A program made the translations under genes and the position numbers. The notes under the pieces were generated by a model that was given only the letters and a program-made list of their open reading frames with translations, was not told the origin of the DNA and searched no databases. A stretch of 64,000 bases of DNA from Syntrophorhabdaceae bacterium. GTDB lineage: Bacteria > Desulfobacterota > Syntrophorhabdia > Syntrophorhabdales > Syntrophorhabdaceae. The stretch is taken from positions 4,384,001 through 4,448,000 of the forward strand of contig OY762209.1 of the NCBI GenBank assembly GCA_963665295.1. Direction: 5' to 3'. Of the stretch, positions 42,511 to 48,117 are shown one piece after another (positions within the stretch are counted from its first letter, which is position 1; each line of letters starts with the position of its first letter).

Positions 42511-43059
42511 TCAGTCCGCCTTCAGGATAACCGTTTCATTAAATGCCCTTGTATAGGCATTAATATTCTTCTGAGCGTTTATCCCGAACCTGTTTTTCAC
42601 AGGCTCCTCAAGAGATTCGAGAGGTACCACTCCGGTGGCCTTTACGAGGGCTCCCAGCATAGTGGTATTTGTTATCGGCACCCCAAGCTCTTCCTTGGCG
42701 ATCTTTGTCCCATCCACATAGGCAATATTATGCCCCGGAAACAGCATCATGAGATCTTCAACGGGCTTGTGGGTATTTATGATGACGAATCCGTCTTTCA
42801 AACCTTCCGTGGGGTTAACGGTCCCCAGCAGCGTTGCATCCAGGATGATCACCGCGTCAGGCTTATAGACTTTCGACCTCAGCCTTATCGGTTTATCCGA
42901 CACTCTTAAAAAGGCAAGGACAGGCGCCCCTCTTCTTTCCGGGCCAAAACTCGGGAATGCCTGGGCATATCTGCCTTTCGCGATGGCTGCCTGGGCTATT
43001 ATTTCTGCCGAGGTTACAGCTCCCTGGCCGCCTCTTCCGTGAAATCTCACCTCTATCAT
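42511..43059 (-). CDS. 2-oxoacid:ferredoxin oxidoreductase gamma subunit (PorC-like), orphan
   Basis: MIEVRFHGRGGQGAVT, FGPERRGAPV, NTTMLGA; ATGA overlap with the cysS stop. Confidence 0.88.
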   Translation of the reverse strand: MIEVRFHGRGGQGAVTSAEIIAQAAIAKGRYAQAFPSFGPERRGAPVLAFLRVSDKPIRLRSKVYKPDAVIILDATLLGTVNPTEGLKDGFVIINTHKPVEDLMMLFPGHNIAYVDGTKIAKEELGVPITNTTMLGALVKATGVVPLESLEEPVKNRFGINAQKNINAYTRAFNETVILKAD

Positions 43060-44519
43060 CTGTCCTCTCCTTTCGTCGTAACTCCACTTTTTATTCTCCA
43101 CTCGGTGCCCTTGGGCGAATCCTGCAAAAGGATTCCTTTCTGAGCGAGAGTATCTCTTATTTCATCCGACTTCTTGTAGTCCTTGTTCTTCCGGGCCTGC
43201 ACCCTTTCTTCGATCATACCCTCAATGGAGGCGGCATCCAGCCCCATACGACTCAGGTGCCTCGTTCTTTCCTTTTCCGAGAACGCGTCCACGTCGTCAA
43301 GCAAAAGACCTATGCCCTGCGCGAGGGTGACAAGAACGTCCCTGGCATAGAGAATGCGTGGGACCCTGCTCTCGTCATGCTCGTCCACCATCCGGTTTAC
43401 CATTTTCGACAGCTCAAAGACCGAACTGAGGGCAAGGGCTGTGTTGAAATCATCATCCATGGCCTCGTAGAACTTCTCCTCCAGTTCACGAGCTGCTCGA
43501 AAAGGCGCCGCTGATGCCTCTTTCCCTTTTCCTGCTTCCCGGGCTCTTTCCAGGGTATAATAGAGTCTCTGGAGCGCGTTATTCGTATCCTCTATCGATT
43601 TATCGGTATAATCAACAGGATTCCTGTAATGAGTCGATAGGAAGAAAAGTCTCAGGACCTCGGGATGATACTCCTTCATGAAGTCCTTTATGAGAAGAAA
43701 ATTGCCGAGAGACTTTGACATCTTTTCCTTCTCGATGTTCACGAATCCGTTGTGGACCCAGTAATTCACGAATCGAACGCCCGTGGCCGCCTCGCTCTGG
43801 GCGCGCTCGTTTTCATGGTGCGGGAAGACAAGGTCTTTCCCTCCCCCGTGTATGTCAAAGGGGGAGCCGAGGTATTTCGTGCTCATCACGGAGCACTCTA
43901 TATGCCATCCCGGTCTGCCTTTACCGAACGACGTCTCCCAGTACGGCTCACCCTCTTTCGAACCCTTCCACAGGGCAAAATCGAGGGGGTTCCTCTTCCT
44001 GTCATCCACATCGACCCGCGCCCCCGCCATCATCTCATCGAGACTCCGGTTGGACAGCCTGCCGTAACCGACAAAGCTTTCTACGGAAAAGTAGACATCG
44101 TCATCAACCCTGTATGCGTGTCCCTTGTCAAGGAGAGTTTCCACGAGACGTATCATATCATCGATATGTTCCGTGGCCCTCGGCTCATAGGTGGGAGTGA
44201 GGATGTTCAAGGCCCCCATATCTTCCTTAAAAGACCTGATATACTTCTCCCCTACTTCCTTCCACGGGACGCCTTCCGTATTCGCCTTCTTCAGTATCTT
44301 ATCGTCGATATCGGTGAAGTTCTTCACGAAGACGACGTCAAGACCTTTCGCCTTGAGATACCGGTAAATCACGTCGAATACGATGGCGCTCCTCGCGTGA
44401 CCGATATGACAATGGTCATAAACGGTTACACCGCATACATAGAGTTTTGCCCTGCCTTCCTCGACGGGTTTGAATTCTTCCTTGTTTCCAGTGAATGTGT
44501 TGTATATTTTTATAGACAT
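43056..44519 (-). CDS. cysS: Cysteine--tRNA ligase
   Basis: CGVTVYD, HIGH, GRPGWHIECS, KMSKS. Confidence 0.97.
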   Translation of the reverse strand: MSIKIYNTFTGNKEEFKPVEEGRAKLYVCGVTVYDHCHIGHARSAIVFDVIYRYLKAKGLDVVFVKNFTDIDDKILKKANTEGVPWKEVGEKYIRSFKEDMGALNILTPTYEPRATEHIDDMIRLVETLLDKGHAYRVDDDVYFSVESFVGYGRLSNRSLDEMMAGARVDVDDRKRNPLDFALWKGSKEGEPYWETSFGKGRPGWHIECSVMSTKYLGSPFDIHGGGKDLVFPHHENERAQSEAATGVRFVNYWVHNGFVNIEKEKMSKSLGNFLLIKDFMKEYHPEVLRLFFLSTHYRNPVDYTDKSIEDTNNALQRLYYTLERAREAGKGKEASAAPFRAARELEEKFYEAMDDDFNTALALSSVFELSKMVNRMVDEHDESRVPRILYARDVLVTLAQGIGLLLDDVDAFSEKERTRHLSRMGLDAASIEGMIEERVQARKNKDYKKSDEIRDTLAQKGILLQDSPKGTEWRIKSGVTTKGEDR

Positions 44520-44592
44520 ATGTTGCTATTTTTATCACAACGTGCGCCCCCTTGTCAAAACTTATCTGAGCCTCGGGGCCGGCCTTTTGGAA

Positions 44593-44622
44593 TTGACAAG
44601 GGTCACCTCCTTGAATTATTAT
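44593..44622 (+). promoter_or_regulatory. Sigma70-like promoter of the leader/metal-uptake operon
   Basis: TTGACA (44593-44598), N18, TATTAT (44617-44622). Confidence 0.55.
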
Positions 44623-44648
44623 TTGCCCATGAGATCGGAAGGACGCTC

Positions 44649-44963
44649 ATGAGTCTCGTGAGAAGGGAAGCGCACTCCCCTTCGTATGCCGGACGCAGAT
44701 CAACCGCCGGGAAGGTCCTGGCGGTTCTCTTTTGCGTTTGTCTTCTCCTTTCCCTCGGGATGGGCTTTCACCACCATACGGACGGGCTTGAACACCCCGA
44801 TTGCCCAACCTGTGCACTTTCGTCCCTACCGGTAATCGGATCGGCATCCTGCGATTCAGCGCCTTTTTTTGTGGACATCGTGTTTTTGGCGCCCCTCCGG
44901 GATTTCCGTCCTCTTTGTTCTTCCCTCGATTCCACTCATGCCATAAGGGCGCCTCCCGCCTGA
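44649..44963 (+). CDS. DUF2946-like leader protein (TM, HHH-x5-H-x2-CxxC, C-terminal RAPP)
   Basis: MSLVRREAHSPSYAGRRSTAGKVLAVLFCVCLLLSLGMGFHHHTDGLEHPDCPTCALSS...THAIRAPPA*. Hidden in the ORF track as the 3' end of shadow ORF 43752-44963. Confidence 0.8.
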   Translation: MSLVRREAHSPSYAGRRSTAGKVLAVLFCVCLLLSLGMGFHHHTDGLEHPDCPTCALSSLPVIGSASCDSAPFFVDIVFLAPLRDFRPLCSSLDSTHAIRAPPA

Positions 44964-45058
44964 CATTCTTCACCCGCACCACAAATCCATAATAAAAGAT
45001 TCCCAACGGAGGAGTATCACCACCGTACGCTCCGCCCTGAATTCGCGAGGAGGCACCA

Positions 45059-46411
45059 ATGCATAAGACGCTTGTCTTTGCCCTTCTCTTCGCGTGTCTC
45101 GGTTATTCAAGTTCATTTGCAGGTAATCTTGAATCGAGGCTGAACGCGATGGAGGAGACCTTAAGGAAGCAACAGGAGACAATCAACGAGCAGCGCAAAA
45201 TGATCGAGGAATTGAAAGGCGAATTGGCAACAGTAAAGAAGCAGGAGACCGCCCCCGCGGTTGCCGATATACCTCCGGGGACCGCGGGTGAGCCGAAGAT
45301 GTCCGGCATATCCGGTCTTTTCGGCGGCGCATGGATGACCAATCCGTATATTTCCTTTGTGTTGAACACCAATTTCTACTCCTCCAGCATCAATGAAAGG
45401 GAACTATCCAACAGGGGAATCCCCGGTTACTCAAACCTGGGTTTCGAGCAGAAGAAAGGGTTCAATATCAGCGAGGGTGAATTATTCCTTTTCGCTCCCG
45501 TGGATCCCTATTTTAATCTCTATGCCAATATACCCTTTACGGAAAGCGGCAGTTCCCTTGAAGAGGCATACTTTATTACCACCTCCCTCCCCGAGGGTTT
45601 GCAGGTAAAGGGAGGTAAATTCAAGAGCAACTTCAGTCGTTTCAATGCGCAGCACCCCCACGCATGGGATTTCGCCGACGCTCCTCTGTCGTACCGGGCC
45701 TTCCTCGGCAACGAAGGTCTCATCGAGAAGGGGGTACAGTTGACCTATCTCCCGGCTCTGCCCTTCTACACTCTCCTCGGAGTGGAAGTGCTCCAGGGGG
45801 AAAACGAAGTCATGTTCAACCAGAACGCCACAGGAGGTCCTCACGCCTTCACCGGGTATTTGAAACAATCCGTTGATCTGGGTGACTATTCCACCCTGCT
45901 TTTCGGCCCCTATGCCGTAGGCGGCCAAACGCGCACCACCACCGTTGCGAACGGTACCTTTCTGATGGGCAATACGCAACTCTATGGGTTTGAAACCGTC
46001 TTCAAATGGAAACCCTCGAAATACAGAAGCCTTATTGTCCAGGGAGAGTACATGATACGCAATCAGGACGGCACCCTTTACGATGCCTCGCCAAACACCG
46101 CCTCCAGTCTTAAGAGGTCCCAGGACGGCGCATACATTCAGGCCCTTTATCAGATCGACAGGTGGAGGTTCGGCGCGCGATACGATCGCCTCGGTCTGTT
46201 CAGGACCGATTACACGCTTGCGGGCGTGGAGCAGAGCTTCGGGCAGGACCCGTGGCGGGCCACTGCCGCAGTCGAGCTGAACCTGAGCGAGTTCTCCCGC
46301 CTGAGGCTTCAGTACAACTACGATCGGTCGGGCGGAGACGGACGGACAAACAACGAGGTCTTTTTGCAGCTTATTCTGGGCATCGGCGCACACGCCGCCC
46401 ATTCATTCTAA
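45059..46411 (+). CDS. Outer-membrane beta-barrel / porin of metal-uptake operons
   Basis: Signal peptide, coiled coil, amphipathic strands, HPHAWDF, C-terminal LGIGAHAAHSF. Confidence 0.75.
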   Translation: MHKTLVFALLFACLGYSSSFAGNLESRLNAMEETLRKQQETINEQRKMIEELKGELATVKKQETAPAVADIPPGTAGEPKMSGISGLFGGAWMTNPYISFVLNTNFYSSSINERELSNRGIPGYSNLGFEQKKGFNISEGELFLFAPVDPYFNLYANIPFTESGSSLEEAYFITTSLPEGLQVKGGKFKSNFSRFNAQHPHAWDFADAPLSYRAFLGNEGLIEKGVQLTYLPALPFYTLLGVEVLQGENEVMFNQNATGGPHAFTGYLKQSVDLGDYSTLLFGPYAVGGQTRTTTVANGTFLMGNTQLYGFETVFKWKPSKYRSLIVQGEYMIRNQDGTLYDASPNTASSLKRSQDGAYIQALYQIDRWRFGARYDRLGLFRTDYTLAGVEQSFGQDPWRATAAVELNLSEFSRLRLQYNYDRSGGDGRTNNEVFLQLILGIGAHAAHSF

Positions 46412-46423
46412 GGAGACGTCACA

Positions 46424-47308
46424 ATGAAGAAACCAACCATACTGATCTTTCTCATCACATTCCTTTTTGCCTGGCCCGCCTTTGCCGAACTGAACGTGGT
46501 GACCACCCTTCCATGGATAGGGAGTATCGTGAACGATCTGGGCCGGGACAAGGTGAAGGTGACGGTCCTGGTCAAGCCGAGCCAGGATCCCCACATGATC
46601 GAAGCGAAACCGAGCATGATCCTTGCGGCGAGAAGGGCCGATCTCATTATGTACAACGGCCTCGACCTTGAAATAGGCTATCTTCCTATCCTTATCGAGT
46701 CATCACGGAATCCGAAGATTCAGCCGGGCAGGCCGGGTAATTTCGATTGTTCCCGTTTTGTGGCGGCCATCGAGAAGCCCCTCGCCGCCGACAGAAGCCT
46801 GGGGGACGTCCATCCCCTGGGCAACCCCCACTATCATCTTTCGCCCGGGAATATGCGTAATATTGCGGAAGGCATTTCCCGGACCCTGTCCCAATTGGAC
46901 CCCGGAAACGCATCTTTCTACCAGGAAAACGCGTCCGGCTTCCGGAAGAAGCTCGACGAGAGAAGGAAGGAGTGGGGAACAGCGCAATTGCGGGGGAAGA
47001 AATTTGTCAGCTACCACAAGTATTTCGAATACCTTGCACAGGAATACGGGTTCCAGCTTGTGGGATACATCGAAGCCAAGCCGGGTATCCCGCCGTCTCC
47101 CGGCCATATCGAAAGTCTCATTGAACTCGCGAAGGGAACAAAACTGGACGGCATACTTACCACCGCATATTTTCCACGGACAGCTCCCGATTTTCTTGCC
47201 CGAAAAACGGGCCTCAAGGTAATTGTCATTCCCCATGAAGTGGGTGCCACGCCTCAGGCAACGGACTGGTTCAAACTCATGGACCTTGTATTCGCCTCAT
47301 TATCGTAA
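46424..47308 (+). CDS. Cluster A-I (ZnuA/TroA-type) metal ABC substrate-binding protein
   Basis: QDPHMIE, NGLDLE, GDVHPLGNPHY, YHKYFEYL, KPGIPPSPGH. Confidence 0.88.
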   Translation: MKKPTILIFLITFLFAWPAFAELNVVTTLPWIGSIVNDLGRDKVKVTVLVKPSQDPHMIEAKPSMILAARRADLIMYNGLDLEIGYLPILIESSRNPKIQPGRPGNFDCSRFVAAIEKPLAADRSLGDVHPLGNPHYHLSPGNMRNIAEGISRTLSQLDPGNASFYQENASGFRKKLDERRKEWGTAQLRGKKFVSYHKYFEYLAQEYGFQLVGYIEAKPGIPPSPGHIESLIELAKGTKLDGILTTAYFPRTAPDFLARKTGLKVIVIPHEVGATPQATDWFKLMDLVFASLS

Positions 47309-47319
47309 GGAGACAATGA

Positions 47320-48117
47320 ATGGAAGCGCTACAGTTGCTTATGTATCCCTTTCTCGCCTGCCTCTGCCTGATCCTGATCCACGCCTATTTCGGTATTCAT
47401 GTTCTCGAACGGGGGATCATTTTCGTGGACCTTTCCCTCGCGCAATTCACGGGCCTCGGCATCGCGTGTGCCCTCTATGCCGGGGCCGGCTCGCACGGCC
47501 AGTACCTCTACTCCGCCGCCTTTGCCGTAATGGGCGCCCTTCTCCTTTCTTTCTCCCGCCGCATATCCCGGTTCGTCAATATAGAGGCCTTTATCGGTGT
47601 GCTCTACATCTTCGGTCTCTCCGCGAGCGTCCTCATACTCGACCGCACGCCTCACGGCCTCGAGGAATTGAAGTCCATCTTCAACGGCAACATACTCTGG
47701 GTAAGCGGAGGGGATGTGCTGAAGGCATTCTTTCTTTATGCAGTAATAGGGGCCTTCCATTTCATTTTCAGAAGACGTTTCTTTGCCCTCACAAGGAACG
47801 GGGAACAGTCCGTGCTATGGGAGTTTCTTTTCTTTCTCAGTTTTGCTCTCGTCCTTGTAAGCTCGGTGAAACTTGCAGGGATACTCCAAGTCTTTGCCTT
47901 CCTCGTTATTCCCGCTCTGATAGGAAGGCTTTTCGGCAACGCTCCCGGTAAGGTCCTCATTGGAGGCTGGCTCATCGGAGTCGGGGCAAGCATTTTCGGT
48001 CTTGCAGTCTCTTATCGCCTGGACCTGCCCGCCGCTCCCCTGATTGTTGCCTCCCTCTGTCTGGCCTTCTTCTCTCTTCTGGGAGCAAAGGCGCTCCTTG
48101 CAGGGAAGTCATCATGA
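47320..48117 (+). CDS. Metal ABC transporter permease (ZnuB/MntB family)
   Basis: GIHVLERGIIFVDLSLAQ, GILQVFAFLVIPA; multiple TMs. Confidence 0.85.
   Translation: MEALQLLMYPFLACLCLILIHAYFGIHVLERGIIFVDLSLAQFTGLGIACALYAGAGSHGQYLYSAAFAVMGALLLSFSRRISRFVNIEAFIGVLYIFGLSASVLILDRTPHGLEELKSIFNGNILWVSGGDVLKAFFLYAVIGAFHFIFRRRFFALTRNGEQSVLWEFLFFLSFALVLVSSVKLAGILQVFAFLVIPALIGRLFGNAPGKVLIGGWLIGVGASIFGLAVSYRLDLPAAPLIVASLCLAFFSLLGAKALLAGKSS

Follow-up and report, generated by a model that had tools for sequence, protein, structure and literature searches.

The window analysed here, a stretch of 64,000 nucleotides, carries on its forward strand a 104-codon open reading frame that ends in Arg-Ala-Pro-Pro-Ala and is followed by genes for an outer-membrane protein, a periplasmic binding protein and a permease (Table 1). 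The next gene after the permease is on the opposite strand. The letters of the locus are identical in two full-length contigs (X1 and X3) from two studies, one of which may be the source of the assembly; contigs X4 and X5 cover the locus in pieces only. Neither the leader nor the barrel is matched in NCBIfam, and over positions 44000-45500 Rfam finds no family except a chance match to DnaX.

Table 1. Coordinates of genes and predicted features at the locus (positions in the window)
Feature	Position	Strand	Remarks
Cysteinyl-tRNA synthetase gene	43056..44519	-	divergent neighbour, outside the system
Sigma70-type promoter-like site	44593..44622	+	TTGACA-18-TATTAT; 11/12 matches; 0.7 expected in shuffles
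7-codon ORF	44629..44652	+	ATG at predicted transcription start; stop overlaps leader ATG (ATGA)
RAPP arrest-type leader ORF, 104 aa	44649..44963	+	ATG 44649, TGA to 44963; CruR/CutF-like, DUF2946-related
Hydrophobic helix, signal peptide or signal anchor	44703..44765	+	residues 19-39; AlphaFold helix
Predicted metal site	44769..44813	+	HHHTDGLEHPDCPTC, residues 41-55; H41-H42-H43-x-D45-x3-H49-x-D51-C52-x2-C55
RAPP arrest motif codons	44946..44957	+	P-site Pro at 44952-44954 by ApdA/ApdP analogy
Predicted anti-Shine-Dalgarno arm	44951..44959	+	Ala-Pro-Pro-Ala codons; z -1.98
C-rich, G-poor, largely unpaired stretch, possible Rho loading site	44964..45010	+	16 C vs 4 G (first 47 nt)
Predicted inner hairpin	44998..45043	+	GGAGGAG paired to CTCCG; joins the switch arms
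Porin Shine-Dalgarno, predicted 3' arm of switch helix	45045..45054	+	AGGAGG at 45048-45053
450-aa outer-membrane protein	45059..46411	+	long N-terminal helix and predicted 16-strand, plug-less porin; pLDDT 88
ZnuA-family periplasmic binding protein	46424..47308	+	PF01297, E 2e-49; invariant His 57, 130, 136, 198
ABC-3 family permease	47320..48117	+	PF00950, E 2e-23; shortened cytoplasmic loop

The promoter-like site recurs in 43 of 61 homologous loci, and in 32 of these 43 the leader's own in-frame start follows 5-10 nt after the -10 box, where transcription would begin or close to it. A rough background for the latter, taken with a different pattern, is given by this genome as a whole, where an ATG stands 4-9 nt after the -10 box at 122 of 563 consensus promoter-like sites; the sequence suggests that many mRNAs of the organism are leaderless. 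Around the leader promoter no Fur or Zur box was recognised (best matches 11/19 for Fur and 11/22 for Zur, which is background, with consensus sequences that may miss lineage-specific boxes), and upstream of the leaders no spaced palindrome is common to more than 2 of the 61 loci. If the promoter-like sites are active, the leaders would mostly be made from leaderless mRNAs without a common operator. In the window the 7-codon ORF precedes the leader, and its overlap with the leader start is as originally described. It is not conserved in the homologues and is likely a local variant that loads ribosomes onto the leader by coupling. A sequencing error as its source was rejected because the two full contigs have the same letters.

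The leader and its relatives

Among the first 21 residues of the leader are four Lys/Arg and one Asp/Glu, the hydropathy peak is 2.66 (17-residue window, from residue 23), and 44 residues separate the CxxC from the RAPP (residues 100-103), after which come Ala and the stop. The 104 aa, basic N-terminus, single helix, spacer of about 45 aa and RAPPA-stop of the original prediction are all present in the sequence. The AlphaFold model (pTM 0.42) has a C-terminal half that is predicted to be unstructured. A match to DUF5993 (E 0.0014) was rejected, since it spans the hydrophobic helix alone. The genome has 54,404 stop-to-stop frames of at least 50 aa. R[AG]PP terminates 50 of them, and a CxxC lies 30-60 residues before that end in only three, with spacings of 44-46 and all three ahead of metal-transport genes. 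The features of the leader are therefore beyond chance.

The same genome has a second His-rich CxxC-45-RAPP leader (G000:C1:3277263-3277547, minus strand; L086:7264-7548), which precedes genes for a ZnuA-type binder, a PF03773 permease and a DUF1980 protein, with no porin. A third leader (G000:C1:3288789-3289091, minus strand; L087:6790-7092), which lacks the His and ends in RGPP, precedes a CzcB/CzcA/TolC-like efflux operon. Between this third leader and a divergent Fur-family gene lie two perfect TGAGAC-N3-GTCTCA palindromes (at 3289105 and 3289177); the genome contains no other perfect copy.

Synteny before the barrel family, which had been proposed as a check, speaks clearly for a conserved leader. 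Eighty barrel loci were fetched, of which 70 have at least 600 nt upstream. By pattern search an ORF ending in R[AGS]PP stands directly before the operon in 64 of these 70, and inspection found a variant or frameshifted leader in five of the six others (end RPPP in two, HAPP in one, HDPP in one, frameshift in one); the sixth, L073 from Allochromatium, is leaderless. The carriers are Desulfobacterota-like, Nitrospirota, Aquificota and Pseudomonadota records. Over 61 aligned leaders the mean identity is 26%, the linker is unconserved, and invariant are only H41, C52, C55, R100, P102 and P103, with H43 in 90% or more; of these, the RAPP and Cys columns were selection criteria, whereas the His columns were not selected for. 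The spacing from CxxC to RAPP is 43-46 in 62 of 62 leaders, a set picked with a 42-47 filter, just two of the 64 pattern-positive loci being without such spacing. An export signal or anchor (15-residue hydropathy of at least 2.07) is seen in all 53 homologues compared.

Since a profile of the leader finds 4,390 protein clusters (50% identity) among 1.84 billion representatives, such leaders are common. They are distributed patchily across genomes (12/151 in a phylum sample, 8/69 in the family, 26/121 and 15/101 in two other groups). In a set of loci from Geobacter relatives and one Nitrospirota-group genome (L156, L157, L161, L141, L116, L158 and L160), leaders of this type stand before genes for TPS-domain exoproteins, multiheme cytochromes and other exported proteins.

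The family assignment needs some care. The query leader itself has no match to DUF2946 (PF11162) at E<=1 and stays below the gathering score of 23.7, so that on this check the assignment fails. Its relatives match weakly in 35 of 61 cases (E<=0.1), three of the 30 scanned singly reach the cut-off, and three of 61 weakly match DUF2607 (ZrgD). The nearest Atlas (language-model) cluster is named DUF2946-containing (0.95). By these sequence comparisons the leader is a distant DUF2946 relative, CruR/CutF-like in architecture and no member of the profile. Thus, of the proposed likeness to CruR, the conserved RAPP leader, the fixed spacing and the non-TonB porin/SBP/permease operon stand, and membership of the query in the DUF2946 profile does not.

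The 104-aa ORF is very probably a real arrest leader. Its conserved export signal would also suit an ordinary small periplasmic metal-binding protein whose RAPP is not regulatory. This we regard as highly improbable: conservation is confined to the site, the spacing and RAPP, the C-terminal half is predicted to be unstructured, and RAPP is depleted from proteomes except near the ends of small exported uORFs (PMC12992588).

The spacer and the Shine-Dalgarno sequence of the porin gene

Between the leader stop and the barrel ATG are 95 nt, the first half of which is C-rich and G-poor as had been noted. The start-less GGAGGAG (at 45008) and the CTCCG (at 45030) that had also been noted are indeed present and complementary. 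They were rejected as the switch, however, since they are predicted to pair with each other as a scaffold hairpin within the spacer. In the computed fold of 44930-45080 it is the Ala-Pro-Pro-Ala codons of the leader that pair with the Shine-Dalgarno sequence (SD) of the porin gene. With the stall register of RAPP peptides taken from PMC10951233, a ribosome stalled at Pro102 was represented by removing the RNA up to 44967, whereupon AGGAGG is computed to be unpaired. The cost of opening the SD falls from 13.1 to 7.0 and from 12.2 to 7.0 kcal/mol with two fragment starts and from 8.3 to 7.0 kcal/mol with a third. The predicted pairing of the RAPP Pro-Pro codons with the porin SD is what is new here; this anti-SD helix, the likeliest output, is overlooked in the original prediction.

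In 35 of 56 homologous loci the SD is predicted (p>0.5) to pair with the Pro codons or with the letters directly behind the stop, while 21 of 56 have no predicted helix at the stall zone at this threshold. Blocking the footprint makes the SD easier to open by more than 2 kcal/mol in just 34 of 56. From these helix statistics 6 of 62 loci without a parsed start are left out, and 2 more because of spacers >200 nt. The native duplex has a mean energy of -16.6 kcal/mol, as compared to -13.1 kcal/mol for cross-locus pairs (native above the median in 45/54), -12.7 kcal/mol after synonymous recoding and spacer shuffling (47/54) and about -10 kcal/mol for upstream windows; the duplex with the porin SD has -16.3 kcal/mol versus -11.6 kcal/mol with the SD of the SBP gene (33/41). 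The first Pro codon of RAPP is CCT in 31 of 62 leaders versus 586 of 3567 (16%) downstream Pro codons. A hand-picked set of eight loci has a consensus helix directly behind the stop, in which one pair next to the SD is compensated (U-A/G-C), and a second hand-picked subgroup has one on the Ala-Pro-Pro codons. It should be noted that Pro codons, being rich in C, pair with any SD, and that the helix counts, inflated by kinship among the loci, are not independent. In six Aquificaceae loci (L056, L057, L058, L063, L068 and L070) a small unidentified gene lies between leader and porin, and there the anti-SD helix targets the SD of the inserted gene.

Since the stall-site helix beats four controls, the output is likely translational, as in CutF and SecM, and not mainly via Rho; occlusion of the SD by the RAPP-codon helix is, we think, the probable form of it. 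If, instead, stalling acted as in CruR chiefly by keeping Rho off a C-rich site, the helix being secondary, one would expect a C excess such as is found behind the stop codon, where the first 45 nt contain more C than G in 59 of 62 loci, the excess being twofold in 24 of them. The genome has a rho gene, and CruR works in this way (PMC9426467). Nevertheless this alternative appears unlikely: the SD complementarity is locus-specific, some spacers have only 41-55 nt, and the anti-SD itself makes up part of the C excess. An intrinsic terminator was not found between leader and porin; the two terminator-like matches, in the promoter and in the 5' part of the leader, are about chance (1.0 expected).

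The operon and the candidate metal

The model of the 450-aa protein has its best fold matches in chitoporin, OmpT, OprP and DcaP, and no Pfam barrel family was matched. Its conserved His motifs are a QHPHAWDF loop and a C-terminal GAHxAHxF. The automatic Atlas label, TonB-dependent receptor, was rejected because the model has 16 strands (own count) and no plug, versus 22 strands plus a plug. With PF01297 and PF00950 for the other two products, the predicted non-TonB porin/SBP/permease operon is supported. On a Sulfurovum plasmid (NZ_CP087125; L110:3842-7148) genes for porin, zinc SBP and permease follow each other in the same order and are preceded by a small hypothetical gene.

The coupling helix of ZnuB-type permeases couples the ATPase. 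In the permease of the window the loop is, by alignment, at least 7 residues shorter than at the coupling helix of the three canonical permeases of this genome, and the deletion is seen in all aligned permeases except that of L026. No ATPase gene adjoins the permease gene in 65 loci, 53 of which have at least 900 nt of room; 2 of the 65 contain an ATPase gene, neither beside the permease. The sequences thus leave the importer without the two marks of a ZnuABC-type importer, an ATPase of its own and the permease coupling helix, and this is overlooked in the original prediction. The ABC-3 permease may be ATP-independent or may borrow an ATPase.

The four His of the binder are kept in 66 of 66 homologues, and among solved proteins its best relatives bind zinc. 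A leaderless paralogue of the porin, 52% identical and with a changed C-terminal His motif, is found in the same genome (G000:C1:3099771-3101400, minus strand; L111). Upstream of it are the genome's two best Fur-box matches (Fur box of 18/19), and downstream is a Fur-family gene. Since this paralogue has a Fur box and not a Zur-type box, the porin family is not zinc-only. The leaderless L073 has a Zur-like box (17/22 versus a consensus) resembling a site in PMC9817125. It thus seems that leader and repressor box stand in for each other, and this speaks for a regulatory role of the leader. Against the zinc reading it counts that in this genome a complete znuA/C/B-type operon is already present, with a Fur-family gene as its first.

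What else the leaders precede was determined for 55 parsed of 73 profile-found loci, 18 unparsed loci being left out of the count; the training set of the profile was porin loci, from which four of the counted loci are drawn. Of 51 parsed His-rich leaders, 34 stand before the porin family and 4 before a ZnuA-type binder (38/51), 11 stand before other exported proteins (TonB receptors 4, of which 3 were scanned; TPS 2, of which 1 was scanned; multiheme cytochrome 1; unknown 4), and 2 reach the contig end. All first downstream genes that were read encode exported proteins, some without a role in metal uptake (TPS, multiheme cytochrome), and the RAPP peptides ApdA and ApdP are export monitors (PMC10951233). 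One could therefore think of a leader that monitors not metal but export or periplasmic thiol oxidation, via a SecM/ApdP-like pull or a CxxC disulfide. That this is so we consider quite unlikely: the His cluster beside the Cys pair is conserved, the linkage to metal transport is strong, including all three leaders of this genome, and in the 55 parsed loci none stands before sec genes. The leader probably senses metal.

Among the metals, zinc is our best guess and a somewhat better one than all others together. It is favoured by the neighbours of the second leader, the His2Cys2 core, the ZnuA-type binder and the Zur-like box of L073, and also by the 38 of 51 His-rich leaders that stand before this porin or a ZnuA-type binder. 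Release of arrest by zinc is physically plausible, since an engineered His2Cys2 finger, at a shorter distance than here, releases SecM arrest on zinc (PMC4571824). The same arrest-and-helix switch could also have nickel, cobalt, iron(II), manganese or copper(II) as its cognate metal, for which speak the Fur box of the leaderless paralogue, the extra invariant His130 of the binder, which fails all NCBIfam zinc/manganese cut-offs, and the His-only CutF-like clusters that are linked to nickel/cobalt genes (PMC9973294). Small residues at -3/-1 ahead of X-H-x-H, as the cleavage rule has it, are found in 36 of 53 homologues. If cleaved before F40, the leader would have the mature N-terminus X-H-H, which presumably resembles an amino-terminal Cu/Ni site. 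In one of 65 loci (L022:6833-7252, Nitrospirota) the permease gene is followed by a candidate NikR-like gene. However, zinc in a tetrahedral site is favoured by a combination of His with two Cys, and the Cys pair is invariant here. Furthermore, the third ligand position of the SBP is His as in ZnuA, L073 has the Zur-like box, and no copper gene was recognised behind the scanned His-rich leaders. A metal other than zinc is therefore rather unlikely.

Taken together, a CruR/CutF-type leader whose ribosome stalls at RAPP under shortage of a metal (probably zinc), thereby opening the porin SD helix, has in our estimate an even chance of being the mechanism. From the constitutive-looking promoter, which is seen in the sequence, a short-leader or leaderless mRNA would be made. 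The ribosome would halt with RAP in the P site, as shown for other RAPP peptides, and its footprint would cover the Pro-Pro codons, the anti-SD arm, so that porin, binder and permease could be translated. Metal bound at the His/Cys site 47-61 residues upstream would, by folding or export, pull the chain free; the ribosome would then finish, the helix re-form and uptake be switched off. Untranslated C-rich RNA might then also be shortened by Rho. The fullest version of this scheme, a nascent-chain zinc sensor in which zinc at the His2Cys2 site releases the arrest, closes the SD helix, replaces Zur on a leaderless mRNA and controls a new type of importer (His-lined porin, four-His binder, ATPase-free permease) in many Gram-negative phyla, is doubtful as a whole and is put forward tentatively.

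Comparison with known systems

Leaders of this kind were established by CruR (PMC9426467) and CutF (PMC9973294; bioRxiv 10.1101/2025.02.05.636593), and both tested members of the class sense copper. A zinc (or nickel) version, if true, would add a second metal to those read by translation arrest and provide a metal switch free of a repressor. Peptide and spacer (95 nt) are of a length that suits a cell-free stall assay, which makes the question accessible to experiment. A further lead from the operon is a candidate metal porin, uncharacterised and labelled TonB receptor in databases, together with a permease that seemingly has lost its ATPase. The claim that metal and output are new has to be narrowed. 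In the open-access literature searched, whose supplements may list the pairing, no tested zinc- or nickel-sensing RAPP leader was found; non-copper CutF-like leaders, including nickel/cobalt ones from His-only clusters, were, however, proposed already in 2023 (PMC9973294), and the source data of PMC12992588 contain rows in which a RAPP leader precedes a 'zinc-regulated' outer-membrane protein.

The importer resembles the cluster A-I importers ZnuABC and AztABC in its PF01297 binder and PF00950 permease. It differs from them in having no ATPase gene, a loop shorter by at least 7 residues, a dedicated porin and, here, an extra His in the binder. ZrgD (DUF2607), from the Vibrio zrgABCDE operon, is likewise the small first gene of a zinc uptake operon, but in that case Zur represses the operon, and an ABC ATPase is part of it (PMC9817125). 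An arrest function for ZrgD was not found in the literature searched. In the source data of PMC12992588, uORFs before DUF2796/ZrgA end in RAPP in 137 cases versus AAPP in 2.

With ApdA and ApdP the leader shares the RAPP core, with these and SecM the export signal (PMC10951233), and with SecM, by prediction, the control of an SD by a stalled ribosome (bioRxiv 10.1101/2025.02.05.636593). Unlike the leader here, these peptides head sec genes, sense export and are without a conserved His/Cys site.

CutF from Rhodobacter capsulatus (PMC9973294; bioRxiv 10.1101/2025.02.05.636593) is also an exported leader with a metal site and a Pro-rich end, and its stalling opens a stem that hides the SD of the next gene, the same logic as is predicted here. 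As in the CutF-like proteins of PMC9973294, the leader is short (104 aa; <150), has PP within its 15 C-terminal residues (at 102-103), has its same-strand neighbour 95 nt away (<1000) and contains a hydrophobic export-type helix. CutF, however, has CxxxC and PPP, and copper induces its stall, which turns detoxification on. Since a RAPP leader here heads an importer, metal is predicted to release the stall. CutF needs its signal peptide (bioRxiv 10.1101/2025.02.05.636593), whereas CruR functions without it (PMC9426467), so the spacing would agree with metal sensing on the periplasmic or on the cytoplasmic side of the membrane.

In arrangement the leader resembles CruR (Bp2923) from Bordetella pertussis, which is also the first gene of an uptake operon, with an export signal and a CxxC, 45 residues before the C-terminal RAPP compared to 44 here (PMC9426467). 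The metal-off logic of CruR is predicted here too. Three supplements of that paper gave no match for the relevant taxa or ZnuA. Different from CruR are the His3-D-H cluster before the CxxC and the genes downstream: CruR heads a TonB receptor and copper genes, whereas the leader here heads a porin/ZnuA-type/ABC-3 operon and not a copper-homeostasis operon as expected for DUF2946. The spacer has 95 nt as compared to 162 nt in CruR, and, unlike in CruR, an SD helix is predicted at the stall site.
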